DNA of 64,000 bases from contig OZ024745.1 in assembly GCA_964016885.1 (NCBI GenBank), positions 11,346,001-11,410,000 of the forward strand. The letters run 5' to 3'. The notes beneath the pieces are model-generated. The model was given only the letters and a program-made list of their open reading frames with translations, did no database searches and was not told the DNA's origin. The stretch comes from Eledone cirrhosa. Lineage: Eukaryota. The position numbers were made by a program, and so were the translations under genes. Positions 12,101 through 48,114 of the stretch are shown piece after piece (position 1 is the first letter of the stretch; every line of letters starts with the position of its first letter).

Positions 12101-14575
12101 TCTAGTGATGGCGTCACCTTCTTGTCTATTGATGGAGTCACCTTGAGGTCTAGTGATGGGCTTAGCTTGTGGTCTAGTGATAGGGTCACCCTGAGGTCTA
12201 GTGATGGGATCACCTTGATGTCTAATGATGGGGTCACCTTGAGGCCTAGTGATGGGATCACCTTGAGGTCTAGCGATGGAACCACCTTGAGATCTAGTGA
12301 TGGGGTCACCTTGAGGTCTAGTGATGGGGTCACATTGAGGTCTTGTGATGCGTTCACCTTGAGGTCCAGTGATGGAGTCACATTGAGGGCTAGTGATGGA
12401 CTTGACGTCTAGTGATGGGGTCCCCTTGCAGTTTAGTGGTGGGGTGACCTTGAGGCCTATAGATGGGGTCACCTCGAGGTCTAGTGATGGGATCACATTG
12501 AGGTCTAGTGATGGACTTGATGTCTAGTGATGGGGTCACCTTGAGGTCGAGTGATGGAACCACCTTGAGGCCTACTGATGGGGTCACATTGAGGTCTAGT
12601 GATGGGGTCACCTTGAGGTTTATTGATGGAGTCACATTGAGGTTTAGTGATGGGGCCACATTGAGGTCTAATGATGGGGTCACCTTGAGGTCTATTGATG
12701 AGGTCACCTTGAGGTCTAGTGATGGGGTTACCTTGGCGTATATTGATTGGGTCACCTTGAGGTCTAGTGATGGAACCACCTTGAGGTCTAGTGATGGACT
12801 TGATGTGTAGTGATAGGGTCACATTGAGGTCTAGTGATGGGTCACATTGAGGTCTAGTGATGGAGTCACCTTGAGGTCTAATGATGGGGTTATATTGAGG
12901 CCTATTCATGGTGTGACCTTGAGGTCTAGTGATGGGGTCACCTTAAGGTCTAGTGATGGGGTCACCTTAAGGTCTACTGATGGGGTCACATTGACGTCTA
13001 GTGATGGAGTCACGTTGAGGCCTGCTGTTGGGGTCACCTTGAGATCTAGTGATGGGGTCAGCTTGAGGTCTAGTGATGGGGGTCACCTTGAAGTCTAGTG
13101 ATGGGGTCACCTTTAGGTCGAGTGATGGAGTCACTTTGAGATCTAATGATGGGGTCACCTTGAGGTCTAATGATGGGGTCATATTGAGGTCTTGTGATGC
13201 GTTCACCTTGTGGTCTAGTGATGGGGTCACATTGAGATCTAGTGATGGACTTGAGGTTCAGTGATGGGGTCACCTTGAGGTTTAGTGGTGGGGTCACCTT
13301 GAGGCCTATAGATGGGGTCACCTTGAGATCTAGTGATCGGGTCACCATGAAGTCTAGTGATGGAACCACCTTGAGGCCTACTGATGGAGTCACATTGAGG
13401 TCTAGTGATGGGGTTACCTTGAGATTCAGTGGTGGGGTCACTTGAGTTCTAGTGATTGTGTGACCTTGAGGTCTAGTGATGGGGTCACACTGACGTCTAG
13501 TGATGGACTTGAGGTCTAGTGATGGGTTCACCTTGAGGTCTAGTGATGGGGTCACATTGAGGTCTAGTGATGGGGGTCACTTTGACGTTTAGTGGTGGGG
13601 TCACCTTGAGGTCTAGCGATGGAGTCACCTTGAGTTTTATTGATGGGTTCACATTGAGGTTAAGTGATGGGGCCACATTGAGGTCTAGTGATGGACTTGA
13701 GGTGTAGTGATATGGTCACATTGAGTTCTAGTGATGGGGTCACATTGAGTTCTAGTGATGGAGTCACGTTGAGGTTTAGTGGTGGGTGTCACTTTGAGGT
13801 CTAGTGATGGAGTCACCTTTTGATCTATTGATGGAGTCACCTTGAGGTCTAGTGATGGTTTCACATTGAGGTCTAGTGATGAACTTGAGGTCTAGTGATG
13901 GGGTCACCTTGAAGTCTAGTGATGGAACCACCTTGAGGCCTTCTGATGAGGTCACATTGAGGTCTAGTGATGGGGTCACTTTGACGTTTAGTGGTGGGGT
14001 CACCTTGAGGTCTAGCGATGGGGTCACCTTGAGGTTTATTGATGGGGTCACATTGAGGTTTAGTGATGGGGCCACATTGAGGTCTAGTCATGGGGTCACC
14101 TTGAGGTCTAGTGATGGGGTTACCTTGACGTATATTGATTGGGTCACCTTGAAGTCTAATGATGGAACCACCTTGAGATCTAGTGCTGGACTTGAGGTGT
14201 AGTGATAGGGTCACATTGAGGTCTAGTGATGGAGTCACGTTGAGGCCTGCTGATGGGGTCACCTTGAGATCTAGTGATGGGGTCACCGTGATGTCTAGTG
14301 ATGGGATCACCTTGAAGTCTAGTGATGGGGTCACCTTCAGGTCTAGTGATGCAGCCACCTCGAGGTCTAGTGATGGAGTCACCTTGAGGTCTAGTGATGG
14401 GGTCACCTTGAGGTCTAGTGATGGGGTCACCTCGAGGTCTAGTGGTGGAGTCACTTTGAATTCTAGTGATGTGGTCACCTTGAGGTCTAGTGATGGGGTC
14501 ACCTTGACGTCTAGTGAGGGTGTCACATTGAGACCTACTGATGGGGCTTCATTGAGGTCGATGGGGCCATCTTAA
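9105..14575. repeat. 5.5-kb minisatellite, 24-bp unit (GTCACCTTGAGGTCTAGTGATGGG) with 19-bp deletion variants
   Basis: Directly visible; gives short SSDGVTLR/TPSLDLKV ORFs with constant frameshifts. Confidence 0.95.
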
Positions 14576-19228: not shown

Positions 19229-21890
19229 GAACTCCAAATTACACCAGTTGAAACAACAACTCACAGCTACAACAGAAAGACTAAAATATAAGTCAACAGC
19301 ACATAAACGACAAGTGCTAAATAGATTGTTTGCCAGAGATCCTAAATCAGTTTATCGCAGCTTCGGTGGCAAAAGCTCAATCTCTGTAAATGACACCCCT
19401 TCAAAAGAACAGGTTGAGAGCTACTGGAGATCTGTATGGGAAACGGATGACGGATTCAACAGACAAGCTAATTGGCTAAAAGAACTGGAACAGGACTACT
19501 GCCAACATGTCCAGACAAAACAATATGACATAGATGGGTCAATACTGGAAACAGCTCTACAGAAAATGTCGAATAGGAAATCGCCAGGCCCAGACCTCAT
19601 TACAGGATACTGGTTGAAGAATTTCACTTTCTATCGGCAAGATCTCATACGGCTGTTTACAGAAACCATTAAGGGCACACAAGAACTGCCCAGATGGTTA
19701 TCAACTGCCTCTACTCTCCTCATTCCCAAAAATAGCCAAACCACCCTTGCTAAAAATTACCGCCCAATTGCCTGCCAAAACATCATGTATAAATTATATA
19801 CTGGGTGCCTTAACCTGTTCTTACAGGATCACTGTGCTACCAACAACATCATAACACCTGAGCAAGCTGGTGGAAAGAGGGAGGTGTGGGGTTGCATAGA
19901 TCACCTACTAACTAACAAAATGATTCAGGAAAAAACAACAAAGAATCGCAGAAACATGACTGTCGTGTGGCTGGACTATCAAAAAGCATTTGATAGTGTA
20001 CCTCATGGGTGGATTGTTAAGGCTTTACAGTTAGCTAAAGTCCCACAACCATTGGTAGCTGCTGTTGAACGCCTGACCAAGAACTGGTACACCAGTTTGA
20101 TCCTTAGAGGTGAGAAGGAGCAGGTTAAGACTGATAAGATACATTACCAGTAGGGCATCTTTCAGGGTGATAGCTTGTCAGTGCTACTCTTCGTTCTCTC
20201 ACTGAATCCACTATCTTACCTACTCAGGAAACAAGGTCGACAAAGAAGTGGGACCAGAAGTATCTCCCATCTTTTCTTTGTTGATGACCTGAAGTTGTAT
20301 GGGCCAAATATCAATGACATCAAGAAACAATTGGACCTCATTACACAATTTTCAACCGACATCAAAATGAAATTTGGTGAGTCCAAGTGTGCATATTTGG
20401 CAGTAAAACGTGGAAGAGCTGTGCCCTCCTCTAGAAATCTAGAGATGAACGGCCTGACAATACAACCTCTGCAGTCAGGTGACAACTACAGATATCTTGG
20501 ACAGGATGAGAATGTCAGATATGATGGACCCATAAATAAGGAGAGAACCAGAACTGAATACCTCAGAAGAGTAAAGAAAATATGGTCATCAGAACTGTCA
20601 GCATACAACAAATACATTGCCCACAATACTTATGCTGTGCCAATTCTAACGCCAACATTTGGCCTACTGAACTGGTCATTGCAAGAACTAAGTGAGATGG
20701 ATGTTAGAACTCGAAAACTTCTCAGTGTTACTGGGAACTTTAACATCAATGGTGATGTGGATAGGCTATACTTCTCACGCAAGGAAGGTGGCCGGGGTCT
20801 AAAATCAATATTAACAACATATCAGACCCGGATAGTGACACTGAAGCAACACCTTCAACAGAGGAAAAAGGTTGGCAACCATCTTGCCCAGGTTTATGAC
20901 CATGAAAAAAGAAATATCATTAGAATAGCGACTGATCTGGAGGAGAGATATGGAATAAAGCCCGATATAAATCTCTCACCCAGAGAAATCGGAAGATCCT
21001 ATTCAATGTTCAAACAAGAAAAAAAAATTGACCAATTTACAGAAAAAGTTGTGCATGGATACTTGAGGCGTAAAACACAGACCATAGAGGGGATAAACCA
21101 CTCAAAAAGCCTGGCATGGAGTTCCGACAAGTTTATGACATCACACCTTGAGGGATATCTCTATGCAATACAGGAACAAGAACTCCCTACCAAATATCTG
21201 CTGCACAAAAGAGGAGGGCCAGCAGCTGACAATAAATGTAGGCTATGTAAAACAAAGATCGAGGATGTAAGCCACATTGTTGCCAGCTGCGAAAGAATGT
21301 CATCTCGCTACTACCTCCCCATGAGACACGATGGGATAGCTAGAACCATCTGGAACGCACTTCGGAAAACAAAATCAACAACAAACGAGGAAGAATATAT
21401 TGAGACAGATGGCACTAAGGAATACTGGTGGAACCTGAAAATAAAAACTGCCACCAAATTAAAGCACAACCGGCCTGATATTGTAGTTTGGGACCACACA
21501 TTGAAAACGTGTTCTGTTGTGGAGATCAGCTGCCCACTTGATGTAAACGTTGTCAGAAAAATACAGGAGAAGGAGGACATCTACGGACCATTGATGAGGA
21601 GTTTACAAATCCAGTATCCAAGATACACCTTTAGCTTCATACCCATCATTATTGGTGCTACGGGTTATATACCAACCCGCTTGGACCAAAGTATGACTGA
21701 ACTTGGATTTGCGGACAAAAAGCGCAGCTCCCTAATTCATAGTCTACAAATGGCTGCGATAGCTGGCACCTTCAAAATTTGCAAAACATTCTTGCGATTC
21801 AAGGGATGACAATTTCTTTTCTTTTACAACCTTGCCACCAGGAAGGTGGCCGGTCAAAAAATATACTCAAAATTAAGAGAAAGAGAAAAC
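19229..21890 (+). mobile_element. 5'-truncated R4/Dong-like non-LTR retrotransposon (RT + CCHC + restriction-like endonuclease)
   Basis: ORFs 19248-20153 and 20175-21809 are one frame broken by a single TAG; motifs KSPGPD, NYRPIAC, LDYQKAFD, GIFQGDSLS, FVDDLK, CRLC..HIVASC, RHD, RPDIVVWD..VEISCP; flanked by (TACA)n and (TA)n. Confidence 0.92.
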
Positions 21891-21907: not shown

Positions 21908-24897
21908 TGCAAAAGTTTTATTTAAATTGTTGGGATATAACAAGCAAATATTTTTATAACTAATATAAAGCACTCGACAAATATTTGGACTAGATATACG
22001 ATATTAATAAATGGAAACTATATTTATCAAACCATATTTATTTCATTATATATATTTCAAGGATACCAAGTTACATTATGGTATGCCTTCATCAGACAAA
22101 ATACAATATATAACAGTTTTATAAATAGACATTGACGTACCCCTTTTAAAAATTGACCGTTGTTTTTGGAGGCCATCAGGATAGTGATTTGTTTACTTTA
22201 GTAAGTCATAGTGTTAAGAGTAAGTAAAAAGATGGAGAGAGAGAGAGAAACGTGGAGAAAAGAAAGGGAAAGATAGATAAAGAAAAAGAAGAAAACAAAA
22301 AGAAAAGAGAACAGAGGAAAAATAACGGGGAGATATCAAACCATCAGACAGAGAAAAAAAATCCAGAGAAAGATATATAGAGATAGAGAGAGGGGGGAGA
22401 GAACGAAAGCCTTAAGTTATGTCATATTAAGTTGAGTTAACAATTGGGATGAAAAGCATAAATAAAATTAGAAATAGTAATATTCATGAATGGAATATAG
22501 ATATATAATATGAGAAATTACACATTGTTTAATTATAATTAAATATTTAGTTTAAAATTGAAATCAATATATTAAAAATTGGAATTTAAACATTATAAAA
22601 TATATATATTGCTAGAGAGATTATCTATCGCATATTACATACACATAGGCAAAGGTACATAAATATATATATATACACGCTCACTCAGAAAATACACATT
22701 ATATCTACTCCCGCACATAATATATATATACAAAGCATAAGTGATTTTTTGCCATACATTCCCTGTGTTATTAATTAAAAATTGAAAGTTTTTAGTATAT
22801 ATATATAAATATATAGGATTAACGTTCATGCATTTATGGCTGTTAAGTTATGCATATCTGCAATCAAAAACTGCATGTGTAAGCCTGTACATTCACATCC
22901 ATAATTCTTAGCTATGCATGAATAGATATGTGTGTACATCTTCAATTGGTATACACGCGTCACTCATGCATATATACAGACAGACATATAATCACAAAAA
23001 AAGCATATAACACATGTATATGTATGTCAACACACACATATAGATACATTAGCCGTATATAGATATAATCAACATATAACATAGTACAATTGAGTATATA
23101 AAATACAAAAGGATTATATTTTGGAAATATAATTATATCAATATAACTTAAAAAACAAACGAATTCTACAAATATCAAAATACTAAAATATCCCAAACTA
23201 TTATAGAATATTTTAAGTTAAAATAATATGTTTAATATATTTAGTATAGAAATTAATCTTACGTATATTTTAATCAAGATATTGAAAGGACAAACTTTTG
23301 AAAATTATGAGAAGCTATCAAAATAAAAAATAAATCTAATAAAAATTATGAGAAGCTATCAGAATAAAAACAAATCTAATAAAAATAAAAAATAAAATGA
23401 ATCTAATAAAAAAAATAAAATGAATCTAATAAAAAATAAAAAATAAATAAAATGAATCTAATAAAAAATAAATCTAATAAAAAATAAAATATTATATCAA
23501 TATAACTTAAAAAACAAGGATTCTACAGATATCAAAATATTAAATTGTTTAAAAATAAAAATAAAAAATAAAGAAATTTAAAAAAATTAAAAAAATTTTT
23601 TTTTAAATTTCAAAAATTTTTTTAAAATCTTTAAAATTTCAAAAATGTTTAAAAATTTTAAAAAATTTTAAAAACTCTTAAAATATTATAGAATATTTTA
23701 AGCTAAAATAATATGTTTAGTATAGAAATTTATCTTACGTATATTTTATTCAAGATATTGAAAGGATAAACTTTTCTAGAATAGTTTATTATATTTATAA
23801 TTATATTTATGAAGAAAATTTATACTTGGGTACTTAACCAAAGAAAATGAAAAAGGTGAAGGAATCTAATGATTTATCGCCAGGTTAGATATATTAACTA
23901 AATTACTTAATTAATTAAACTACATTTTAAATTTATATTTATATTTAAACGTTGAGTTCAATCTATGTCTGCGGCAACTGAATAAATTATTCCTTAAATT
24001 AAGGGAATTTTTGGTCTTTAATATAAAAAATATTTCCTCTATACAAAGGTCACAATTTTCTGAAGAGGAATTAAAAGGAGTAGCTTGTGAAATAATATTC
24101 CAAATCAGCGAATATTCAACATTATCTCGTTTTAGGTCCCATAATAGGCTAGATAGCGAAGTTGAAGATTTTTTGTTTGGATCTGTAAAAGAATTTTTAT
24201 GATTATTGAAGCGGGATTTAAATTCTGTAGAGGTAGAACCGACATAGTTAAATGAATTTAAATTAGTTTTAACATTACAATTATAAACTACATTTTTAGC
24301 TAAGCAGTTGTTATTTAATGGACAGTTGGATTTATTTCTACAGTTACAGTTATTCGATTGAATATTGCTTGGGTTATTATTGGTATTTGGTTAGGTTTTA
24401 AATTTCTATTATTAATTCTATTAATATTTTGCGCTAAATTTTTGGTGGAAGAGTAGGTTAATTTTATAGTATGTCTATTAAAAATTGAGTAATATTTATG
24501 TGTTCTAGGGAATCGTTTGTCAAGAGCTTTAAAGAATAGTTTAGCAATAGGGGTTTTAATATTTAGTGAGAAAGGGGGAGCGAACCATAATATATTCCTA
24601 GTTCTATTTCTTTTTCGGCTTTCGGAGTTATAGTAATATTTTCTATTATGGTTGTTGAAATTGTTACCATAATTAAACTTGTTATTATTTTGGTTATTTT
24701 GTATATTATTATTATTATCGATGTATTTAATTTTATTTCTATACCCAGCTCTACCTAACGCTTCATTGTAATAATGCGCTTTTTCATCAAATATATTCTT
24801 ATTAGATGAAATTCTTGAAATTCGTTTTTGAACAGAGTATTTTTAACGGATCTGGGGTGATTAGAGTTAAAATTGACATAATTTAAGTTCTCATTTA
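21908..24897 (-). mobile_element. 5'-truncated Penelope-like element (RT thumb, linker, GIY-YIG remnant at 23920-24897, long 3' region with HHR)
   Basis: Minus strand reads LNENLNYVNFNSNHPRSVKNT, WFAPPFS, CNCRNKSNCPLNNNC, VVY..YVGSTSTEFK, CDLC, CRHR; homologous to 62211-63808; ends in (TA)n. Confidence 0.88.
22041..22101 (-). ncRNA. Type-I hammerhead in PLE 3' end (pseudo-LTR)
   Basis: TTTTGT-CTGATGA-AGGCATACCA..TGGTATCCTT-GAAA-TATATA-TA-ATGAAA. Confidence 0.8.
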
Positions 24898-25064: not shown

Positions 25065-25540
25065 CACCCAAATGATGTAGAAGTTGACCTTAAGTAGGAG
25101 CAATAACATTAAGAAAGACATGAACGACACCAGAACACTCTGCTTTGAAAATTTTGAAAGTAGGTTTATAAGTATGAATTTTCATAAGATTTTCGTAGTT
25201 GTCTCTGTGGTCTAGCGGTAGGTACTAGAGACGGTAGAGATCCTGACCTTGGGTTCAATCCTGGTCAAGAGATACATGTACTTTATCAGTTTTTATTTTA
25301 CAACCAATAGAACAAATCTGAAACGGTTTACCGGGAACCCTACTACTGACCAGGATCGAACTTCAGATCAGGATCACCACCGTCTACGATTCCTCCAACT
25401 AGGCCACCGAGACTGCTACAGAAGTATAATGAAAATTGATAATTATAAACCTACTTTCAAAATCAAAGTTAAAAAGATGTGGAGTCGTTCATGGCTTTCC
25501 TAGAGCTATTAGTAATATTTAGGGTCGACTTCTGGTCATT
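25065..25540. repeat. Diverged inverted repeat (~200-bp arms), each arm ending in a tRNA-like sequence
   Basis: 25201-25270 GTCTCTGTGGTCTAGCGG...GGTTCAATCCTGGTC versus its reverse complement at ~25348-25413; shared TTTTGAAAGTAGGTTTATAA. Confidence 0.75.
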
Positions 25541-25754: not shown

Positions 25755-26456
<702 letters not shown>

Positions 26457-26659
26457 TTCTGAATTTGTTTAGCAAGATTCTTTATTTGAAAACGTGTGTT
26501 GAAACCGATATTGTTATGCTTTGGGAGGGTCATGTTGCCAATAAGAAACACACGCACCAGTTCCTTTCACTTCAATTTATTATAAATTAAATTTATAAAT
26601 TTAAGAATTTATAAATTTCCGGTTGGTTGGTTCGACAACCAGACGATTGTTCATATATT

Positions 26660-26702
26660 GTCAAAGTTCTTTCGTCACACATTCTGTGACCTCTTCAGTG
26701 AC
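26660..26702 (-). ncRNA. Minimal type-I hammerhead (left arm of palindrome)
   Basis: Reverse complement of 26856-26898. Confidence 0.6.
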
Positions 26703-26855
26703 TGGGGATTCTTTTCTTTGTTTTTGTGCCTCTCCATTGTTCTGTTCTACGCCATCTTGTTTTTTCAAAAAACAAGATGGCGTAGGACAGAACAAAGGAT
26801 AAGCACAAAGGAGAGGCACAAAGTTGAGGCACAAAAACAAAGAAATGAATCCCCA

Positions 26856-26898
26856 GTCACTGAAGAGGTCACAGAATGTGTGACGAAAGAACTTTGAC
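26856..26898 (+). ncRNA. Minimal type-I hammerhead (right arm of palindrome)
   Basis: GTCA-CTGAAGA-g-GTCACA gaatg TGTGAC-GAAA-GAAC-TT-TGAC. Confidence 0.6.
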
Positions 26899-27316
26899 AA
26901 TATATGAACGATCGTCTGGTTGTGGAACCAACCAACCAACCGGAAATTTATAAATTCTTAAATTTATAAATTTAATTTATAATAAATTGAAGTGAAAGCA
27001 ACTGGTGCGTGTGTTTCATATTGGCAACAATATATATATAAATATATATATAAATATATATATATAAATCTGGATGGATTCAGTTTAAAACCGGTTAGAC
27101 CATTAGTCACCAGATTACTCGATACTTGGGCAGTAGAATATGGTTATACACTAAAGATTCGGGACCCCGACGGCCGAGGTCTTGCCGTTTCAACAGCTAG
27201 TTCCAGACTCTGAAACTAGCTATAAACTAGTATATACATATATTAAGAAGAACGAAGTTTCGTTTGTGTATCGAGTATTCATATTAGTACCACCACAGTA
27301 ATTCAGTGAATCACAT

Positions 27317-27392
<76 letters not shown>

Positions 27393-27436
27393 GTAAAATA
27401 AGAAAATTATAAAATTAACTAACTTACTAAAATATC

Positions 27437-27518
27437 ACTTCCAACTAATTAGTTTCTGGAATGGAGTAAATATATTTTCCGAAGAAGATATGGAGAAACA
27501 TTCCGTCGTCAGGGAAGT
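27437..27518 (-). ncRNA. Type-I hammerhead (inverted monomer)
   Basis: Reverse complement of 28165-28246. Confidence 0.85.
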
Positions 27519-28164
27519 CTATTCTCAGCTAAGTTTCCAGGCAAAGCGAGGACTCTGGAAACTTATTAAAAAAATAATTCAGTGGATAGGAAATAGCAAA
27601 GCGTGGACTGAATTCCTAGCCATTGAGAAAATCACTGCCTCTGCGTCTGTGGCAAATTCAAAAAGAATCAATCACGTGACATCGAGGTCAATCAGTGGAA
27701 AGTGGTTTGCTAATAAAACAGCGGCCTGCCTACTACCATAGCAGCAGTCATGGCCAATATTGCTCGACAAATAATTTGGAGATAATAATAAAGAATTCAT
27801 ATCTAGTAACATATATATACATACAGATGCATATCAATGCTAGCATTGATATGCATCTGTATGTATATATATGTTACTAGATATTAATTCTTTATAATTA
27901 TCTCCAAATTATTTGTCGAGCAATATTGGCCATGACTGCTGCTATGGTAGTAGGCAGGCCGCTGTTTTATTAGCAAACCACTTTCCACTGATTGACCTCG
28001 ATGTCACGTGATTGATTCTTTTTGAATTTGCCACAGACGCAGAGGCAGTGATTTTCTCAATGGCTAGGAATTCAGTCCACGCTTTGCTATTTCCTATCCA
28101 CTGAATTATTTTTTTAATAAGTTTCCAGAGTCCTCGCTTTGCCTGGAAACTTAGCTGAGAATAG

Positions 28165-28246
28165 ACTTCCCTGACGACGGAATGTTTCTCCATATCTTCT
28201 TCGGAAAATATATTTACTCCATTCCAGAAACTAATTAGTTGGAAGT
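28165..28246 (+). ncRNA. Type-I hammerhead, first of 11 (others start 28688, 29211, 29734, 30257, 30780, 31303, 31826, 32351, 32874, 33399)
   Basis: ACTTCC-CTGACGA-c-GGAATG..ATATCTTC TTCG GAAAATAT..CATTCC-a-GAAA-CTAATTAG-TT-GGAAGT; 6-bp stem I, palindromic stem III, GUU site after 28240. Confidence 0.88.
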
Positions 28247-31200
28247 GATATTTTAGTAAGTTAGTTAATTTTATAATTTTCTTATTTTACGTCTCTCATA
28301 TTATTGTTCTGCAACCCCATGCATTGAACCACAATGTTACTAAGACAAAACCTATATATTTGCTAGCATTGATATGCATCTGTATGTATATATATGTTAC
28401 TAGATATTAATTCTTTATAATTATCTCCAAATTATTTGTCGAGCAATATTGGCCATGACTGCTGCTGTGGTAGTAGGCAGGCCGCTGTCTTATTAGCAAA
28501 CCACTTTCCACTGATTGACCTCGATGTCACGTGATTGATTCTTTTTGAATTTGCCACAGACGCAGAGGCAGTGATTTTCTCAATGGCTAGGAATTCAGTC
28601 CACGCTTTGCTATTTCCTATCCACTGAATTATTTTTTTAATAAGTTTCCAGAGTCCTCGCTTTGCCTGGAAACTTAGCTGAGAATAGACTTCCCTGACGA
28701 CGGAATGTTTCTCCATATCTTCTTCGGAAAATATATTTACTCCATTCCAGAAACTAATTAGTTGGAAGTGATATTTTAGTAAGTTAGTTAATTTTATAAT
28801 TTTCTTATTTTACGTCTCTCATATTATTGTTCTGCAACCCCATGCATTGAACCACAATGTTACTAAGACAAAACCTATATATTTGCTAGCATTGATATGC
28901 ATCTGTATGTATATATATGTTACTAGATATTAATTCTTTATAATTATCTCCAAATTATTTGTCGAGCAATATTGGCCATGACTGCTGCTATGGTAGTAGG
29001 CAGGCCGCTGTCTTATTAGCAAACCACTTTCCACTGATTGACCTCGATGTCACGTGATTGATTCTTTTTGAATTTGCCACAGACGCAGAGGCAGTGATTT
29101 TCTCAATGGCTAGGAATTCAGTCCACGCTTTGCTATTTCCTATCCACTGAATTATTTTTTTAATAAGTTTCCAGAGTCCTCGCTTTGCCTGGAAACTTAG
29201 CTGAGAATAGACTTCCCTGACGACGGAATGTTTCTCCATATCTTCTTCGGAAAATATATTTACTCCATTCCAGAAACTAATTAGTTGGAAGTGATATTTT
29301 AGTAAGTTAGTTAATTTTATAATTTTCTTATTTTACGTCTCTCATATTATTGTTCTGCAACCCCATGCATTGAACCACCATGTTACTAAGACAAAACCTA
29401 TATATTTGCTAGCATTGATATGCATCTGTATGTATATATATGTTACTAGATATTAATTCTTTATAATTATCTCCAAATTATTTGTCGAGCAATATTGGCC
29501 ATGACTGCTGCTATGGTAGTAGGCAGGCCGCTGTCGTATTAGCAAACCACTTTCCACTGATTGACCTCGATGTCACGTGATTGATTCTTTTTGAATTTGC
29601 CACAGACGCAGAGGCAGTGATTTTCTCAATGGCTAGGAATTCAGTCCACGCTTTGCTATTTCCTATCCACTGAATTATTTTTTTAATAAGTTTCCAGAGT
29701 CCTCGCTTTGCCTGGAAACTTAGCTGAGAATAGACTTCCCTGACGACGGAATGTTTCTCCATATCTTCTTCGGAAAATATATTTACTCCATTCCAGAAAC
29801 TAATTAGTTGGAAGTGATATTTTAGTAAGTTAGTTAATTTTATAATTTTCTTATTTTACGTCTCTCATATTATTGTTCTGCAACCCCATGCATTGAACCA
29901 CAATGTTACTAAGACAAAACCTATATATTTGCTAGCATTGATATGCATCTGTATGTATATATATGTTACTAGATATTAATTCTTCATAATTATCTCCAAA
30001 TTATTTGTCGAGCAATATTGGCCATGACTGCTGCTATGGTAGTAGGCAGGCCGCTGTCGTATTAGCAAACCACTTTCCACTGATTGACCTCGATGTCACG
30101 TAATTGATTCTTTTTGAATTTGCCACAGACGCAGAGGCAGTGATTTTCTCAATGGCTAGGAATTCAGTCCACGCTTTGCTATTTCCTATCCACTGAATTA
30201 TTTTTTTAATAAGTTTCCAGAGTCCTCGCTTTGCCTGGAAACTTAGCTGAGAATAGACTTCCCTGACGACGGAATGTTTCTCCATATCTTCTTCGGAAAA
30301 TATATTTACTCCATTCCAGAAACTAATTAGTTGGAAGTGATATTTTAGTAAGTTAGTTAATTTTATAATTTTCTTATTTTACGTCTCTCATATTATTGTT
30401 CTGCAACCCCATGCATTGAACCACAATGTTACTAAGACAAAACCTATATATTTGCTAGCATTGATATGCATCTGTATGTATATATATGTTACTAGATATT
30501 AATTCTTTATAATTATCTCCAAATTATTTGTCGAGCAATATTGGCCATGACTGCTGCTATGGTAGTAGGCAGGCCGCTGTCTTATTAGCAAACCACTTTC
30601 CACTGATTGACCTCGATGTCACGTGATTGATTCTTTTTGAATTTGCCACAGACGCAGAGGCAGTGATTTTCTCAATGGCTAGGAATTCAGTCCACGCTTT
30701 GCTATTTCCTATCCACTGAATTATTTTTTTAATAAGTTTCCAGAGTCCTCGCTTTGTCTGGAAACTTAGCTGAGAATAGACTTCCCTGACGACGGAATGT
30801 TTCTCCATATCTTCTTCGGAAAATATATTTACTCCATTCCAGAAACTAATTAGTTGGAAGTGATATTTTAGTAAGTTAGTTAATTTTATAATTTTCTTAT
30901 TTTACGTCTCTCATATTATTGTTCTGCAACCCCATGCATTGAACCACAATGTTACTAAGACAAAACCTATATATTTGCTAGCATTGATATGCATCTGTAT
31001 GTATATATATGTTACTAGATATTAATTCTTTATAATTATCTCCAAATTATTTGTCGAGCAATATTGGCCATGACTGCTGCTATGGTAGTAGGCAGGCCGC
31101 TGTCTTATTAGCAAACCACTTTCCACTGATTGACCTCGATGTCACGTGATTGATTCTTTTTGAATTTGCCACAGACGCAGAGGCAGTGATTTTCTCAATG

Positions 31201-34200
31201 GCTAGGAATTCAGTCCACGCTTTGCTATTTCCTATCCACTGAATTATTTTTTTAATAAGTTTCCAGAGTCCTCGCTTTGCCTGGAAACTTAGCTGAGAAT
31301 AGACTTCCCTGACGACGGAATGTTTCTCCATATCTTCTTCGGAAAATATATTTACTCCATTCCAGAAACTAATTAGTTGGAAGTGATATTTTAGTAAGTT
31401 AGTTAATTTTATAATTTTCTTATTTTACGTCTCTCATATTATTGTTCTGCAACCCCATGCATTGAACCACCATGTTACTAAGACAAAACCTATATATTTG
31501 CTAGCATTGATATGCATCTGTATGTATATATATGTTACTAGATATTAATTCTTTATAATTATCTCCAAATTATTTGTCGAGCAATATTGGCCATGACTGC
31601 TGCTATGGTAGTAGGCAGGCCGCTGTCGTATTAGCAAACCACTTTCCACTGATTGACCTCGATGTCACGTGATTGATTCTTTTTGAATTTGCCACAGACG
31701 CAGAGGCAGTGATTTTCTCAATGGCTAGGAATTCAGTCCACGCTTTGCTATTTCCTATCCACTGAATTATTTTTTTAATAAGTTTCCAGAGTCCTCGCTT
31801 TGCCTGGAAACTTAGCTGAGAATAGACTTCCCTGACGACGGAATGTTTCTCCATATCTTCTTCGGAAAATATATTTACTCCATTCCAGAAACTAATTAGT
31901 TGGAAGTGATATTTTAGTAAGTTAGTTAATTTTATAATTTTCTTATTTTACGTCTCTCATATTATTGTTCTGCAACCCCATGCATTGAACCACAATGTTA
32001 CTAAGACAAAACCTATATATTTGCTAGCATTGATATGCATCTGTATGTATATATATATGTTACTAGATATTAATTCTTTATAATTATCTCCAAATTATTT
32101 GTCGAGCAATATTGGCCATGACTGCTGCTATGGTAGTAGGCAGGCCGCTGTCTTATTAGCAAACCACTTTCCACTGATTGACCTCGATGTCACGTGATTG
32201 ATTCTTTTTGAATTTGCCACAGACGCAGAGGCAGTGATTTTCTCAATGGCTAGGAATTCAGTCCACGCTTTGCTATTTCCTATCCACTGAATTATTTTTT
32301 TAATAAGTTTCCAGAGTCCTCGCTTTGCCTGGAAACTTAGCTGAGAATAGACTTCCCTGACGACGGAATGTTTCTCCATATCTTCTTCGGAAAATATATT
32401 TACTCCATTCCAGAAACTAATTAGTTGGAAGTGATATTTTAGTAAGTTAGTTAATTTTATAATTTTCTTATTTTACGTCTCTCATATTATTGTTCTGCAA
32501 CCCCATGCATTGAACCACAATGTTACTAAGACAAAACCTATATATTTGCTAGCATTGATATGCATCTGTATGTATATATATGTTACTAGATATTAATTCT
32601 TTATAATTATCTCCAAATTATTTGTCGAGCAATATTGGCCATGACTGCTGCTATGGTAGTAGGCAGGCCGCTGTCTTATTAGCAAACCACTTTCCACTGA
32701 TTGACCTCGATGTCACGTGATTGATTCTTTTTGAATTTGCCACAGACGCAGAGGCAGTGATTTTCTCAATGGCTAGGAATTCAGTCCACGCTTTGCTATT
32801 TCCTATCCACTGAATTATTTTTTTAATAAGTTTCCAGAGTCCTCGCTTTGCCTGGAAACTTAACTGAGAATAGACTTCCCTGACGACGGAATGTTTCTCC
32901 ATATCTTCTTCGGAAAATATATTTACTCCATTCCAGAAACTAATTAGTTGGAAGTGATATTTTAGTAAGTTAGTTAATTTTATAATTTTCTTATTTTACG
33001 TCTCTCATATTATTGTTCTGCAACCCCATGCATTGAACCACAATGTTACTAAGACAAAACCTATATATTTGCTAGCATTGATATGCATCTGTATGTATAT
33101 ATATATGTTACTAGATATTAATTCTTTATAATTATCTCCAAATTATTTGTCGAGCAATATTGGCCATGACTGCTGCTATGGTAGTAGGCAGGCCGCTGTC
33201 TTATTAGCAAACCACTTTCCACTGATTGACCTCGATGTCACGTGATTGATTCTTTTTGAATTTGCCACAGACGCAGAGGCAGTGATTTTCTCAATGGCTA
33301 GGAATTCAGTCCACGCTTTGCTATTTCCTATCCACTGAATTATTTTTTTAATAAGTTTCCAGAGTCCTCGCTTTGCCTGGAAACTTAGCTGAGAATAGAC
33401 TTCCCTGACGACGGAATGTTTCTCCATATCTTCTTCGGAAAATATATTTACTCCATTCCAGAAACTAAATAGTTGGAAGTGATATTTTAGTAAGTAAGTT
33501 AATTTTATAATTTTCTTATTTTACGTCTCTCATATTATTGTTCTGCAACCCCATGCATTGAAACACAATGTTACTAAGACAAAACCTATATATTTGCTAG
33601 CATTGATATGCATCTGTATGTATATATATGTTACTAGATATTAATTCTTTATATATATATATATATATATATACATGTTCTATGGTGCAACACAAATATA
33701 CACAAATTTGCATACCTTTTGATGTCTATAGATATAAACGTGCCGACACACACACATACATATACGCACACATGCATTGCACACTGATGGGCACATACAT
33801 ATTTGTACACAAGTATTCCAATACGGCAGGGCCTAATGGATTCCCCTGGCAGTACGTACAATCTGAACACACTGACACACATCTTGGTGTTATGCCAATA
33901 CTATATATCATTTCACACCTTTTATTATTAATATTTTTGATGTTCTCTTGAGAGAATCGTTTTTGCTGAAAATATCGAATAATGTACACCACTTTTACCA
34001 GTATCACAAAAATACTGGTCCCCCCCCACACATACACACATATACACACACACATATATACACACACACACATACACCGCGTACACTAACATACAAAGAG
34101 ACATATATACACACACACTTCTCCGTATAAGACAAGAGCTGAAAAATATCTTTCAACATGTTAAAATATCCCCCACACACTTACAGACACATTCCTACTG

Positions 34201-34971: not shown

Positions 34972-35022
34972 ATATATCAATAATATTAATAAATGGAAAC
35001 TATCTTTATAAAACCATATTTA

Positions 35023-35080
35023 TTTTATTATATATATTTCAAGGGTACCAACATTTTTGGTACGCTCTCATCAGATAAAA
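35023..35080 (-). ncRNA. Type-I hammerhead in PLE 3' end
   Basis: TTTTAT-CTGATGA-GAGCGTACCAA aaatg TTGGTACCCTT-GAAA-TATATA-TA-ATAAAA. Confidence 0.8.
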
Positions 35081-35362
35081 TACAAAAGTTGTTTTATAGA
35101 TAGTGACATATCCAAAAACAAGAACTTATCGTTTTAAGTTCTGTTTGAATAGTGAAAGAAATTCAAATCTTAGGACGAATATGTTAATGAGGATTACGTA
35201 AAGTTGAAAAAGATCGCTAGATTTAGACGCTGGGTAAATTTAAATAATTATTAGGATTATTTTTTGAGAGAGGTTAATATTATTATTAGGGTGTAAGAAA
35301 CTTTATGGACAGAATATAAGAAAAAAGTATATTATAGTTAGAAATAGATTATTATTATTAAT

Positions 35363-35535
35363 ATCGGTAGAGAGTCGGACGCCATGTTTGCAGCATGGAG
35401 TTACGCGCTTTACGGTCTGAGTTCAAATCCCGCTGAGGTTAACTTTGCCATTCATCCTTATGGCGTCGATAAAATAAAGTACCAGTAATGCACTGGGATA
35501 ATTGCTGGCCTTGTGCCAAAAGTAGAAACAATTAT
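35363..35535 (+). mobile_element. tRNA-derived SINE, nested in PLE remnant
   Basis: Same B box and core as 4457-4646. Confidence 0.85.
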
Positions 35536-36618
35536 TAATATATAATTGTATGGATCGTATTAGTGATGGTGTAAAGAGAATGAAATAATTATATTTATTT
35601 ATTTAATTATATAATTATATATTTTGGTAGTATTTATAATATAATATGAGAATTATAAATATGTTGAAGTAGTAGAATATCAATTTAAAAAAAATGAGAG
35701 ATACTACTAATTATTGGGTCTATTCTAATAGTGAGTTTTAATATTATAGAGATAATATTTATAAGTATATTTTATGAAGAATTGGGGTGGTAAGTATATT
35801 CTATTTTATTATATTACAATAGGTTATTTATATAAATATTTATATAAATAATTTTGGTGAGTATATATGTTGTTTTTATGAATAGATAGATAATTTAAAT
35901 ATTTTTTATATGTGAATTTCTTGTTTACATTTTCAATATATATTTAAGAAAAAGGAAGTAGTTCTATTTTATTATAGAAGATTATTTTGTACATTCAATA
36001 GTTGCATCAAGATAGGAATACATTTACAAAATTTACGAAGTTAACGAAATTATACAAAAAAATTTAAATATTTATGTAATGTTTAGTTGTTACTTAGAAG
36101 AAATGTGTAAGCGTGTTACATTATAAAGGAAAAGATAACTCCAATATTTCTTAGTTAAAATAGTTATATTTACCGTTTATTCTAGAATTTACTCTAAAAA
36201 AATATTCTAATTAAGATATATGTAAAATATATGCAAAAAGAATTTTATATATTATTTTATATGTGATTTTATAGTATCATATATTACATATTTTCTAAGA
36301 TAAAAATGTATTTAGATAGCATTCCTTATATCTATGCATATGTAAATGATATTAAGCATATATATGTATAGATGTCTATATAGTCTATTAGGAAGAAATA
36401 TTATAGACATCAAAAGTATATTCAGAAACATCATTAAAACCATCACAAAAAAGATATATTTCAAAATATCATTTAAAAAAATCATTTAAAAAAAAAATCA
36501 TTTAAAAAGAAAAATATCATTTAAAAAACATCACAAAACATATAAAGAATTTTGTAGAGTGCTTCGAATCTGTTATAAATAAATTTGTTGAATAACCAAC
36601 AAATTAAATAACTCTTTG

Positions 36619-36728
<110 letters not shown>

Positions 36729-37866
36729 TTGGAAGTTACCAGTTTAGACTAGTAAGACCATATTCATCTAAGTACTCAGTATTTGGGAAAGTAGAATGTA
36801 TATATTGTAAATAGTTAGAACCCGATGGCTGAGCTCAGCCGTCGGGCACTAACTGTCTCAGACCCGAAACCCAACCACAAACTCGCCCTAAAGACTTGTG
36901 TAAGGGATACAGACGTTTTCAGGCCGCAGCTGTCGTATAAACGTATGTATGTGTGAATGTGTAAGTATACATGTATGTATGTATGTGTATGTATACATGT
37001 ATGTGTGTATGTGTAAGTATACACGTATGTACGTCTGTTTTGATTGTTTGAATTATTCCTATAAGGAAGGGGCTGGTTCCTCACAAAGAAACAAATCCCT
37101 ATCGCTAAAATTCGATAACCCCCCCCCCCCCCCCTCGGATAAATGTTACGTGTTGGACTTTAGAAAAGTCTTGCACATTTTAACAGTTCCACTGACCGAA
37201 TGTATTTACACAGTGTGTATTAAATGGTCAATTTCGAGCGCGAAAACAACAACAATGGCTCCAGAAATAACGTAGTTAACATCAACACTGAAACCAGTAA
37301 TAAAAGAGAAGACCAATATTTCGATACATTAACAACTAGTATATAAAAAGTGTAAAAGAAAGTAATATATAAGTTTCTAGAATGTATAAAAATAGGGGAT
37401 GTTATTTGAGAGGAGGATAATGACAGTATAACAGGAAAAAATAGAAGAAAACCCCCGAGAAAATGAAGCAAAATAACAAATACATAGGCACGTACTGAAT
37501 ATCTCACTATAGGAAATACAACAACTACAACGACAACTACAACAACAACGACTACAATTACAATTACAACAACAACAACAACAACAACAATGACAACTAC
37601 AACAATACGACAACTACAACAACACGACAACTACAACAACACGACAACTACAACAACAGACAAACGAATATACAGAGAAAAGAAAGCATATGCTGATGCA
37701 ATTATTAAGATATAAAAAAATTGAGATTTTTGCTAAGCATTAGAAAATATTTTTAAAGAATACACTCACACATATATATAAACACATATATTCACACACA
37801 CATATATTTATATATATATATGTATATATATATATAAACACATATACATATATATAACCACATACA

Positions 37867-38807: not shown

Positions 38808-40791
38808 ATGGCTAATTCCCCTCTGCACGAAGCAGCTGAAAGCCTTCCTCACAAAATAACACCTCACACCGACACCACCATTGTAAATGTTACTACGTTT
38901 GCCAACACAAAAAAAATATAAGCAGTAGCAATATTTTAAATTTGTCTCAGGCAGACATTCATTTCCCGCCATTACCAATGACTGCAGGTGTTAAAGCCTC
39001 CACCACCACCACCACCGGGACAACCACCACCCCCACCACCACCGCGACAACAGAAACAAAAGAAGAAAAAAATAAATTAACTCGTGATGTCGAAATGAAA
39101 TCAAGCAAAATGGACTCTTCCGCACCAAAGACGACTGACGTCACCACCACCACAACTGAAACTAAAATTAATATTAACACAAATAACGATAGCAACAACA
39201 ACAACAATGACATTATAAAACCGACCCTCAGTTTCGCCATAGTAGCAAAACAGTTCGAAGCATTCACGGTAACTCAAGAGGATTTAGAAAATGCCAAACA
39301 AATGGTAAAGAAAGATGGGTACAGGGTCAGCCTCACCCCCCACCTAATAAAATGGAGCATCGGCGCCTATGCACCGTGTCGTATAGAACAATAAATGTAA
39401 AATCGCGCCGAGTGGAACGGGCATCCGAGTCCCAAATCCAAAAAGCTTTGGGACATGTGTGGGCAAGAAAAACCCACATCAGACGTGGGCAAAAGTATGG
39501 AACCGTGGATGTGTTCTTTGAAACACCAGAGGAGGCTAGATAACACTCCATGGCCCCATTAAAAAGTGACGACTTCACACTCGTCCCAAGCTATTGTGGC
39601 CAGAGACTCGTAAAGGGTGACCCACGTTCCACCGGCCATCGAAATTCCCTGGCTAATAGCGGCTGTCCTCGCCGGCATCGAAGCCAACACGAAAATAATA
39701 GCAATAGCAAAAGAAAAGCAGGAAAACTGGTCCGGATCTGGGATGGAGCTCCTGATCCAAGCGGACCAAAAAAGCATTGAGGAGATCCCAGAGGTAATAG
39801 ACCTCACTGACGGCAGCCACCTCACGGTAATTGTCGAGGGCAGAAGACCTAGGTGTGTCGTTTGTGGTGAAGGAACCCACCTAAGGGCTTTCTGCCCTCA
39901 GGCTAAAAGGTTGAGGCCACCTCTCCTACCCACCCCAGTGACACAACCATCAACACCACCAGTAGCAGAGATGGCAGCAACAACTGTAGCAGCAACAACA
40001 GAAGCAACTATAACAGCAACAACCCCAGCAACAGTAGCAAAACCAACACCACTATCACCACCAGCAAAACCAACACCACCACCACCCAACGCTTCAGAAC
40101 TAGCACCAGCGCCTACACCATCCACCACACCACAGCCAAAACTAACGGCTGTGGAGGATTTTCCACTCCCCGGCCTATCACAACTGGAGACAGATTGTGA
40201 CGACAAGGAGTGGGAAACGATATCCGGAAAAAAAAAAGAAACCAAAAAAGAAAAAATTCTCTTCCTTCCCCCTCCAAAAACAAAATACAGAGGGAAACAA
40301 ATAAACTAAGAAACAAAAAAGTTAGGACAGATATGCCACCATCCACACCAGCATCAACCCCATCAACCCAAACACCAACACCATCACCATCATTAACTCC
40401 AACACCACCATCACCTACACCACAAAAGTCACCAAAATGCGAAACAGAAACAAACCCACAACAAACGCAAACAAAACAAAACAACCAAAACGATACACAC
40501 TACACAGCATTAAATTTGAACAACAAGCAATTATTACACTACATCCAACACAACACCAGCATCACAGAAAAAGACTACACAACAACCCCAAAATTCACAC
40601 CACCTCCACACATACAAATCACTCGCATCACACAGAAAACGTACATGACACTAAAACAAAAATTCCCCAAAGACATCGGAGACTTCCGACAAGCACTCTC
40701 CAGGAGGATTTATAAGGACATCCTTCCTGAGGAGGCCACAAGCAGTGAAAAGGATGGAAAAACCGTCCTTCCCCTACGAGAAGTAAGGTAA
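38808..40791 (+). pseudogene. Tx1-like ORF1 (gag-like; zinc knuckle; T/P-rich), frameshifted
   Basis: Pieces 38942-39394, 39352-39543 (YGTVDVFF), 39617-40309 (RPRCVVCGEGTHLRAFC, a CCHC knuckle) and 40210-40791; start position approximate. Confidence 0.75.
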
Positions 40792-40825
40792 GTGGTCTTT
40801 CCCATCTTTTCCACTCATTTTCAAC

Positions 40826-43800
40826 ATGACCTCACTCAGAATAGGCAGCATAAATGCGCGTGGCTTGGGGTCGTCATGGAAGCAGGGCCACCTGCTCAAC
40901 GACCTCAGGTCACTAAACATAGATGTAGTGGCCATCAGCGAGACCAGAATCTCCGAAGCACAGGCTTTCGCACCGATCTTCGGCGGCTACGATGTGTACG
41001 CATCTCCCAGCCGTCCGGGATCGGGGGGAGGAGTTGCTGTGCTTTTTCGGAGAGGTTTGGATCTTGCCATACGGGCCATCTTCCTGGACCCAGAAGGTAA
41101 GTTGGTGGTGCTGGACGTGACCAGCGGAGACGGCCAAGCTTTCAGGTTAGTGGCCGTCTATGCCCCGACAGGAGCAGGGCGGCCTGATTTCTTCCGGCGT
41201 CTGGAGACCTTTCTTGGAACGTCCCGCTCTTTAGTGTTAGTGGGCGACTGGAACGGGATCTTAGATGCACGCTGGGATTGTGTGGGATTAGTGGATAGGG
41301 AAGGAGGGTGCAAGAGTCTCACCAACCTGCTCAGACGTTTTGAACTGTCTGACAGGTACCGAATGGATTTCCCGAATGTACCAATGTAGACTTGGACAAA
41401 TCGCATAGGGTCATCCAGATCATATCTAGATAGAGTATTTTGTAGGGAAATAGATAGGTCTAGCATAGGCTGTCCACAATTCAAGATAGTCAGCTACACG
41501 GACCACAAATTCGTGATCTGTGTGCTTGACTTAGATAGGCTTCATAGACGAGGACCCGGCTACTGGAAGCTAAACGCGTCCTTACCAGCGCGCAAGGCCT
41601 ACAGAGACCGGATTAGCGAACTAGTTAAGCGGGCGTTGACGGGGGCCATCGTCAACAACAAGTGGTGGTTTGCTCTGAAAAGAGCAATTAGAATAGAGTC
41701 CATTAGGTTTAGTAAGACTTTAGCAATAGAGAAAAATAGAGCAGAGGGAGAATTAGTTAGAAAATTAGATGAGGCGCTTAGCAAAGGCATCGCGACCGAC
41801 GTACTTGCTGCGAAATTGGCCCTTGACCAATTCTTCAATGCAAAGCACGAAGGCTGCGTTGTCAGAGCTAGGGTGCGTGCTCTCAGACACGAGGGAACGA
41901 AAGCCGTTCAATGGGCCCGAGTGGCGGAGGCGCGTCGTGGCAACAAAGCCACGATCCGGTCTTTGGTGGACCACGACGGGCGCATGCTACTCGATCCCGG
42001 GCAAATGTGTGAAGCTTTTCAGCGACACTTCGCTCAACTGTTCGGGGGCAGTGGCGGGCCGGATCGAGGGATGGACTTTAGTGTCTACCTCGACGGACTG
42101 CCGCGGCTTTCGGCCACTGAGGCGGAGTGTTGCGAAAAGCCGATAACAACCGCTGAAGTACGGGATGCAATGACTAGTTGCACAAGGGGTAAATCGCCTG
42201 GTTTAGATGGTCTGCCCTATGAACTTTACGTACAATTGCCAAACTTGTTCGGAGGCCTCTTGGCGGACGTCTACTGCAACTGGCAACAGAACGGGAGAAT
42301 TCCCAGCTCTGTGAGCCGAGGAGCGGTGGCGCTGCTGAGAAAGGATCCGAATAAGGGGGATAACATAGATAATTTTAGGCCCATAACTCTGCTAAACACA
42401 GAGTTCAAGATTTTGGCCAAGGTGCTAGCAAAGAGGTTGGCGCTTGTCGTTGGTGGTCTGGTGGGAGAGGCACAGACATGCGCCATTCCCGACAGATCCA
42501 TTCACGACAACCTCCACCTCATGCGATACATCGTAGAGAGGGTAGCTAGGGAACCTGGCACGGGTGGGTCTTTGATCAATTTAGATCAGTCGAAAGCCTT
42601 CGATAGGGTCGACCATCGTTACCTAGCGGCAGTCCTGAGGGCGGCTGGCTTTGGGCCCGTCTTCAGAGGCTGGATCGCTGCCATGCACAGCGACATCTGC
42701 TCTGTAGTGAGAGTGAACGGTCACCTTTCGGAACCGTTCAACATCATGCCTCGGTCCGCCAAGGATGTCCCCTCTCGTCCCTATTGTACGTATTGACTCT
42801 CGAGCCATTACTGCACAAACTGGAGACGTTGAGGGGGATCCCGCGCGAACTAGGATGCGGAAGATCCGTGTCAGCATATGCGGACGATGTCACCGTAGTG
42901 GTGTCGAACGCCAAACACATCGAGGCGATCGGCACTACACTAAGAGAATACGAAGCGATGACAGGAGCAATGATCAACCAGGAAAAGTCAGTGGGCCTGC
43001 AGCTCGGCACCTGGAGAGGCAGGTCCATGCCGTCCAACAGCGTCGTCGGGCGCTGGACGGACGGACCGGTTAAATTGCTAGGGGTCTGGTTCGGTCCAAA
43101 CCTCCAGACGGACAAAAACTGGGACGAGGTGACGAGCAGGGTGGCTTCTCTCACCCAGAAATGGGCCGAGAGGAAGCTATCCCTGAAAGGTCGAGCGGAG
43201 GTGGTTAACGCGTACATCGCGTCCGTCATCTACTACCGCCTGACCGTCGTACCTTGTCCTAAGCCCCGCCTGACTGCGCTGGAGCGTTTGCTCTTTCGCT
43301 TTTTGTGGAAGGGACGCGCTCCGATGGTCAGGCGGTCCATCTGCTGTCAACACCCGCTACGTGGAGGGCTGGGCATGCCGTGGCTGATGATGCGCAGACA
43401 CGCGCTCAGGCTACGACATCTCCACCTCTTCCTCGACGGTGATCAGGTGTGGTTGCCGTTTGCTAGACACGTTTTTCCCCAGCTCGTCTCCTTGACGGAG
43501 CTGCAGTCCTGGGTCAAGCGAAGACCGAGAGGGAGCGCTTGGAGACTGGAATGTCTTCAGGCGCTCACAGCCCTCGACCAATCGGGCAATGTGATCGGTG
43601 GAAACTCCACCTTGGCGTTCTATAGGGGATTAGTGGAGGGGAAGAGCGACGACGTACTTGGAGAAACTCTAGGCGTCGATGAAAATCAACTAGCCAATCT
43701 CTTCGGAAGGACTTTCGGGCCGGGGCCTATGGACAACTTCCAGAAATCCCTGGCCTGGCAGTGCTACAGCGGTGCTTTGCCAGTTCGGGATAAACTTTAC

Positions 43801-44244
43801 AGGCATGGAGGTGCCGTCAGCCGGGCATGTCCGAGATGCGCACAGGGCGACGAAACCGTCCTGCACGCACTCGTCCAGTGTCCGAGCATTGCTGACTTGT
43901 GGGTTTATGTCGAACACCTGCTGTCACGTGTAGGACGGATCCAGCTATCAGCTGAGTTCATCGTGAGGATTGCCCCGCCCCCTTCCTTTAGTCGGGAAGG
44001 GCAGGCAGTTTTTATCTGTCTGGTGGCCATGGCGAAAGAGATAGTATGGTGGACACGTTTGAAAGGGCTGAATACGGGCACTTACCTCTTCGGTGAGGCC
44101 CTGATTAACTTTTTCAAATTTCATTTGAAAAGGAAAATCAGGGTAGAGAGGGAAGTGCTCTTTTCCCAGCATTTTGTTGAAAGATGGGTGAGAGAAGCAA
44201 GTATGGCCCGAATGAATGGGCCTTCTCTGAGTATGTGTCTGTAA
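40826..44244 (+). pseudogene. Tx1-like ORF2 (APE endonuclease, RT, C-terminal Zn finger), stop at 41387 and frameshift at ~42750
   Basis: SINARGL, ISET, VYAP, GDWN, SYLD, DHK, YWKLN, KSPGLDG, FRPITLLN, DQSKAFD, RQGCPLS, YADD, CPRC..HALVQC. Confidence 0.93.
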
Positions 44245-44489
44245 ATTAAAGGTGGAAAACTGGGAGAGGGCACTTGCCCTGGTGGTCAGGGCCACTGTGG
44301 TCTTTTAATGGGCTTTCTCCACAAATGTCCCTCGGAAGTCTCCCCCCTATTGGGGAATTTTTCTTTGTTATTTTATTTCAACCTCTGTTTTTTTTACACG
44401 CAGAAATGCCCATTTGTACCGTCCTGTATTGTCCTGTACTGTCCTTAATGTCTACTTTATGTAAACCCTTGTGGTTAATAAAGAAAACA

Positions 44490-44532
<43 letters not shown>

Positions 44533-44534
44533 TA

Positions 44535-44793: not shown

Positions 44794-44843
<50 letters not shown>
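44535..44843 (+). mobile_element. Second, diverged copy of the Tx1 3' UTR with its own (ATT)n tail
   Basis: Aligns to 44225-44530 with substitutions and small indels. Confidence 0.88.
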
Positions 44844-44847
<4 letters not shown>

Positions 44848-48050: not shown

Positions 48051-48114
48051 CTAATAAAAGCAACGGAGATAAAGGTAATGGGAATACAAAAAGTAAGGAA
48101 TAAATGAAAGATAT

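Follow-up and report, generated by a model that had tools for sequence, protein, structure and literature searches.

An inverted head on a retrozyme-like tandem array in Eledone cirrhosa, probably inserted by a Penelope-type enzyme

The tandem array described here from Eledone cirrhosa carries directly at its 5' end an inverted copy of part of its first unit, an arrangement of the 5'-truncated head-to-head type long known from insertions of Penelope-type elements (PLE). As judged from its sequence, the array behaves like a PLE insertion with units of the retrozyme type, and it is very probably a single insertion of a non-coding hammerhead retrozyme into (TA)n, made in trans by the RT/GIY-YIG enzyme of a Hydra-type PLE. 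The inverted head would, by a tentative reading that we hold at close to even and slightly prefer over fold-back of a single cDNA, result from two target-primed cDNAs joined at a native 8-nt palindrome. The weights given to this and to the competing explanations are our own judgement and were not computed. "The window" refers throughout to the whole stretch of 64,000 nt that was analysed (contig OZ024745.1, positions 11,346,001 to 11,410,000 of the forward strand); the features are listed in Table 1.

Table 1. Positions in the window of the array and its inverted head, the young PLE copy and the other inverted insertions.
Feature	Position	Strand	Remarks
Element E	2020-2211		inverted duplication at native hairpin, 6-nt loop, (TA)n on both sides
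Element F	25879-26373		hammerhead-like, head-to-head, offset ~215 nt; arm reaches ~25 nt beyond 3' end of direct copy
Element B	26453-27029		hammerhead element unrelated to the array; head-to-head arms with 1-nt spacer, the left one longer by 80 nt; flanked by (TA)n on either side
Left target tract (AT)33	27320-27385		~4 nt of TA microhomology overlap with outer end of arm
Inverted arm	27382-27841	-	spans monomer positions 463 to 4; carries T128 and 3 private differences
Hammerhead-like motif in arm	27437-27518	-	core at -27512; bounds from mirror arithmetic; mirrors that of monomer 1
Junction 8-mer	27838-27845		part of both arm and monomer 1
Tandem array	27839-33653	+	11 full monomers (523-525 nt) plus 58-nt partial
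Monomer 1 (523 nt)	27839-28361	+	array consensus except position 128 (27966)
PLE-like stretch, monomer 1	27864-27920	+	resembles post-ribozyme 3' region of Hydra-type PLE; 17-nt core 27903-27920
Predicted type I hammerhead, monomer 1	28165-28246	+	predicted cleavage after 28240 (monomer position 402)
Right target tract (TA)n	33650-33673		primary 3' end at monomer position 57-58
PLE inverted arm, young copy	60420-62210	-	61753-62210 mirrored within window; rest by similarity to older copy
PLE forward copy, young	62205-64000	+	5'-truncated, frameshifted; 6-nt junction microhomology at 62205-62210

The mirror axis runs between positions 27841 and 27842, where two arms of 460 nt each (27382-27841 and 27842-28301) meet without a spacer, and 3 mismatches, situated 44, 55 and 450 nt from the centre, interrupt the symmetry before it is lost where the left arm runs into (AT)33. 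A spacerless palindrome with arms of ~458 bp had already been noticed in an earlier, sequence-only reading of the window, and its coordinates agree with ours to within 2 nt. That reading centred the symmetry in GCTAGC (27839-27844) as a native palindrome of the monomer; the centre is indeed native, but the palindrome comprises 8 nt instead of 6, TGCTAGCA. A half-length of at least 4 is found at 8 of the 523 centres of a monomer (1.5%), and the junction centre is such a site. The geometry is head-to-head, the ribozyme reading + in the array but - in the arm. As the junction lies 124 nt beyond the predicted ribozyme cut and the arm reads through that site, run-off there is ruled out as its origin. 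The outer ends of the insertion correspond to monomer positions 463 (left) and 58 (right), and both lie in (TA)n, a simple AT-rich target in which a TSD would be hidden. Since these ends are different monomer positions and not matching terminal inverted repeats, a MITE or foldback DNA transposon is likewise ruled out. Measured along the monomer, 59 nt separate the outer end of the arm from the start of the direct copy further downstream (~23% by chance, as an estimate).

The arm and monomer 1 alone have T at monomer position 128 (27966; 27717 in the arm), all other full monomers (10/10) having C, and the sequence-only reading was thus correct in naming a variant common to these two. Beyond T128, the arm shows 3 further differences from all 11 monomers where 0.64 are expected at the array's mean rate (P=0.028), and monomer 11 also has 3. 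Among the direct monomers, variants are common to more than one of them at 3 of 12 polymorphic sites, one of which concerns the neighbours M4 and M5. Non-adjacent monomers share variants too, and this rules out that the array as a whole stems from just one rolling-circle pass around a monomeric circle; in this the array departs from what such a pass would give in metazoan non-LTR retrozymes. T128 is situated no more than ~185 nt from an end of the array, as are the three variants of monomer 11, and at such sites they would escape homogenisation. The sharing of T128 can also have been inherited from adjacent source monomers or been kept at the array edge. A higher-order pattern (M3=M7, M4=M8, and a 2-nt insertion common to M9 and M11) is visible in the array, and the private variants of the arm and of monomer 11 (3 each) are all transversions, while the 5 interior private ones are all transitions.

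By sequence-level tests the array fits the description of a non-LTR retrozyme, with head-to-tail tandem units, a GC content below 50% (34-36%), a predicted hammerhead in each unit, no coding capacity and a highly self-paired RNA. With 500 as its longest period, Tandem Repeats Finder did not detect the array. The core and the three stems of the predicted hammerhead, which has a UUCG-capped hairpin within loop II, were found in all 11 full monomers on the + strand and in the arm on the - strand. The predicted fold has the three-way junction as its MFE structure, but locally it is no better than shuffles (z -0.09), and the monomer ribozyme may be weak, since its cleavage position is occupied by U and stem II has a C-A mismatch at its base. 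A stricter scan gave 4 hammerhead matches in the 32.8 kb outside the array as against 0.07 in shuffles. The Rfam search of the monomer returned no hammerhead match, and in the whole window the matches listed (150 of 173) were all below the gathering score and nearly all miRNA hairpin look-alikes. The complete monomer RNA folds better than expected both as a linear (z -3.7, 0 of 100 shuffles as good) and as a circular molecule (z -3.8, 60 shuffles). The sole stop-to-stop frame of at least 120 aa in the array, 125 codons in antisense, has no Pfam match above the cut-off, and no ORF combining RT and GIY-YIG, the mark of an autonomous PLE, occurs in the array. An exact 21-nt scan of bacterial and archaeal genomes gave 0 matches, as expected for animal DNA.

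These properties resemble those of metazoan non-LTR retrozymes as described in the available portions of PMC7229834 and bioRxiv 10.64898/2026.07.22.740005, namely non-coding tandem units of low GC content with a type I hammerhead-like motif in each. The unit of 523 nt exceeds the 170-400 nt given in the former source and falls within the 51-972 bp of the latter. In these portions PLEs are also proposed as the mobilisers of retrozymes, and a resemblance to PLE termini is reported in Xenopus. PLE mobilisation of animal retrozymes rests mainly on co-occurrence and terminal similarity. In the passages of the same two sources that a search by terms brought up, no inverted head is mentioned.

The window itself contains a PLE (Table 1), which is of the Hydra type as far as the motifs of its endonuclease region, its hammerhead and its (TA)n target indicate. 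Its motifs include CxCX5C at 63380, CxxC at 63674 and CxH at 63755, with no CCHH, and the best named homologue of its protein is from Argonauta (41% identity). Among the homologues, DKT is present in 111 of 120 and CxCX5C in 100 of 120, and two Cys inside GIY-YIG occur in 3 of 95; the Pfam GIY-YIG match of the window copy is weak (E 0.059), and this copy is truncated before DKT. A 5' truncation and a frameshift disqualify this copy as the source of the enzyme. Its arms are 100% identical over 458 nt. The sequence-only reading had attributed to this PLE, placed at 60419-64000, the same geometry as that of the array, and the head-to-head orientation is confirmed; the copy is not spacerless, however, as the arm end at 62210 mirrors 63543 and the offset amounts to 1332 nt. 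Native PLE sequence continues from 62205 on in 120 of 120 homologues, all anchoring at the junction, from which the 6-nt junction microhomology follows; this 6-nt site 1332 nt off was used, and an 8-nt site at 665 nt was skipped. The minus strand holds at 21909-24895 an older Hydra-type PLE copy with 77% identity to the young one, and a short PLE 3' fragment lies at 34978-35100; each has a hammerhead-like motif and ends in (TA)n, at two different family end positions.

Monomer and PLE are connected by a stretch of ~57 nt (monomer positions 26-82) that is present in every full monomer and in the arm; in both PLE copies, the 3' region behind the ribozyme aligns with it in sense. Of 300 shuffles each, 0 attained the alignment score with the 3' end of the old copy and 3 with that of the young one; against whole PLE elements, 5 of 100 and 6 of 100 shuffles did so, which is weak. 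At no more than 1 edit, the 17-nt core is confined to the 11 monomers, the arm and the two PLE ends, which are 14 of the 18 matches at up to 3 edits. Just ahead of this core, at roughly the same point, both the 3' end of the array and the third PLE fragment (34978) break off. Standard self-BLAST gave no link between array and PLE; the link first surfaced as a match of E=1.3 among many microsatellite matches, and since the stretch was found after the fact, it is treated as good, not conclusive. Taken with the (TA)n target, the hammerhead, the inverted head and the common end position, it supports an involvement of a Hydra-type PLE in the insertion, and the suggestion of the sequence-only reading that PLE RT mobilised the array has gained ground accordingly.

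Comparable features are on record for PLEs. The consulted sections of PMC8557442 state that PLEs commonly have an inverted, 5'-truncated copy directly adjoining their 5' end and that the Hydra clade inserts in (TA)n and carries hammerheads; the array shares both target and hammerheads with this clade, although the monomer ribozyme differs from that of the Hydra-type PLE and the similarity is limited to the ~57 nt. Endonuclease-positive PLEs, so far as PMC3846280 and PMC8557442 cover them in these sections, have in common with the array an inverted copy directly at the 5' end, a junction palindrome and a simple AT-rich target; unlike them, the array lacks an ORF and has its junction at an internal 8-mer, not at the mapped start of a pLTR. 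PLE ribozymes have a palindromic helix III and dimeric cleavage, according to the part of PMC4209133 at hand. Self-priming on an antisense template was proposed as early as 2013 from palindromes at PLE head-to-head junctions (PMC3846280, in part), and both the head-to-head geometry and the snap-back idea are already in print for PLEs. The accessible parts of PMC13282606 and PMC8490949 hold nothing on inverted heads.

An inverted-repeat census of the window comprised 16 rows, 5 of which were kept as TA-anchored inverted insertions (the array, elements B, E and F, and the PLE), while 11 were dropped (six SINE-like pairs, 25079-25533, 46354-47054, two short hairpins and the 2929-3379 pair). In element F the motif at 26196-26232 is a U3-A8 variant of the core with a GUC site, the inverted junction contains a duplicated filler of 7 nt, and the only Rfam match is a weak one to HH9 (E 0.78). 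Element E is one of three related short elements beside (TA)n (2020-2211, 27066-27320 and 36725-36945), and its mirror hairpin is also native in the element at 27066-27320. A 55-nt relative of the tail of element B lies at ~1946-2000. The dropped inverted pair 2929-2960 / 3348-3379 brackets ~430 nt, has its right end in (TA)n and is possibly another inverted head, and a short TA-flanked element at 3463-3597 has a minus-strand hammerhead-like motif at 3511.

By the route that we prefer, a Hydra-type enzyme would nick both strands of the (TA)n tract. Uncleaved multimeric RNA would be bound at its PLE-like 3' stretch (monomer positions ~26-82), one nicked target strand would prime a cDNA at position ~58 and copy a run of monomers, and in a twin-priming step the other target strand would prime a second cDNA by TA pairing at ~463 in the next monomer upstream. 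The two antisense 3' ends would anneal via the self-complementary 8-mer and each be filled in, which would leave a spacerless head-to-head palindrome. Inversions by L1 twin priming have an inverted 5' segment, microhomology at the junction and a short gap from the second priming site to the forward start, and in them the inverted part is unique, whereas a tandem template makes it look like a duplicate of monomer 1. The array shows junction microhomology (8 nt) and such a gap (59 nt), as twin priming predicts, at a single locus and in a form with which fold-back is also compatible. Both strands are nicked and extended by purified PLE protein, which is predicted to be a dimer and uses mainly uncleaved RNA, as reported in the available text of PMC11167929.

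The sequence-only reading had taken the palindrome as the signature of snap-back synthesis. In this explanation, one PLE-made cDNA stopped at the 8-mer and folded on a mini-hairpin of 2-3 bp, from which the RT or a host polymerase extended it over 460 nt of monomer 1; its new end then joined the left (TA)n by microhomology. We regard this as a real possibility, if a less probable one. T128, present in the arm and in exactly the monomer that fold-back would copy, speaks for it and against two primers, as do the complete nesting of the arm in monomer 1 and the self-priming inferred for PLEs from junction palindromes in the relevant part of PMC3846280. Short spacers (0, 1 and 6 nt) in 3 of the 5 TA-anchored insertions point the same way, spacers of at most 6 nt having P ~3e-4 if the ends are independent and untrimmed, and element E turns at a native hairpin of -5.1 kcal/mol. 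Fold-back is plausible, but it loses its standing as a signature, for two annealing antisense cDNA ends give any such junction, sequence alone cannot separate fold-back from the annealing of two identical antisense ends, and the 8-mer favours annealing thermodynamically. The observations of the earlier reading thus hold, and its interpretation does so in the part that concerns the PLE.

Thermodynamics favour the joining of two cDNAs. With -9.6 kcal/mol, self-annealing at the junction centre ranks in the first 3 among 523 end positions, the best palindromes in this respect being those at positions 166, 391 and 523. Its primer hairpin, in contrast, is unfavourable (+3.7 kcal/mol): at 83% of the end positions the best hairpin is at least as good, and better hairpins lie a few bases off. 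Toy models gave likelihoods of 1e-3 to 1.9e-2 for two primers (5 settings) and of 6e-8 to 7e-4 for fold-back (6 settings), annealing being likelier in every setting tried, with a smallest gap of 1.4-fold between the nearest settings. On the other side, energy models cannot score 2-nt loops or enzyme-stabilised mini-hairpins. DNA hairpins with 2-nt loops, of the mini-hairpin type, can be unusually stable, which counts for fold-back.

The 3 private differences of the arm, where monomer 1 has none beyond T128, favour two primers over copying from monomer 1, and the weight of T128 for fold-back is lessened by the sharing of variants among direct monomers, M4 and M5 included. The junctions of element F and the PLE fit fold-back poorly: the arm of the former has a tail of ~25 nt that is absent from the 3' end of its direct copy, which could however reflect a later deletion between TA runs, and the latter bypassed a nearer, longer match. 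Against the two-primer reading, the PLE similarity of the monomer is post hoc and weak against whole elements, and the arm's outer end (463), when measured from the shared motif, coincides with neither of the PLE-family end positions. This makes two primings independently directed by the motif unlikely here and leaves twin priming on one multimeric RNA, or fold-back. That coincident cDNA ends result from stalling of the RT on an RNA helix found no support, as the hairpin whose 5' strand contains the junction is already open by then.

Host repair after the insertion is a third explanation, and an improbable one. The PLE enzyme would have made only the array, and a break near the border of (TA)n and array would have been followed by fold-back, or by fusion of two identical sister ends at the 8-mer, and by rejoining to the TA tract. 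The product would be the same, T128 and the coincident ends would be explained, and fold-back inversions captured at breaks are documented in yeast in the seen part of PMC11724301, where, among barcoded inversions, 16% came from one molecule as against <1% by chance. Yet the arms of the array, the PLE and elements B, E and F all stop at (TA)n with no visible host flank included, and inverted 5' copies are routine in PLEs in the sections of PMC8557442 consulted. A chimeric read or assembly artefact, to which the complete identity of the young PLE arms might lend colour, is very improbable: 3 mismatches separate the array arms, which stop at a defined junction beside unique flank, and the arms of B and F are visibly diverged, those of B with indels.

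As a single locus the array is an ordinary example of a known architecture. What it adds is a PLE-style integration footprint and a PLE-like 3' stretch on a retrozyme array, and with them a link from retrozymes to the Hydra clade; its monomer variants, used as barcodes, offer a cheap test of fold-back versus two-primer joining. The origin of tandem and inverted PLE structures is named as unresolved in PMC8557442 (sections consulted). A broader proposal, which we consider rather unlikely to hold in full, is that Penelope-type inverted heads would arise when both (TA)n strands prime on the same uncleaved multimeric RNA (twin priming) and not by self-priming or from a circular template, that the stretch common with the PLE 3' end would recruit the Hydra enzyme, and that retrozyme arrays, as natural barcodes, could show this genome-wide. 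In the open-licence literature no paper on such an origin of the inverted heads was found by title or abstract start.

The window holds further repetitive sequences. Large minisatellite arrays with periods of 24, 18, 38 and 32 nt occupy 9106-14546, 49570-59077, 59189-59608 and 2-1195, respectively. A dispersed family with a tRNA B-box-like motif, which we take to be SINE-like, occurs at 4474-4646, 35354-35537, 46596-46720, 47857-48297 and 48828-48901; an old inverted pair with tRNA-like boxes lies at 25079-25533, and at 46341-47067 inverted arms of 258 nt, ~97% identical, enclose a 212-nt spacer with SINE-like pieces. Two RT frames of non-LTR retrotransposons are located at 19230-21809 and 40787-44244, the latter with an endonuclease-like frame before it and followed by a 306-bp duplication at 44225-44844 that is bounded by (ATT)n.
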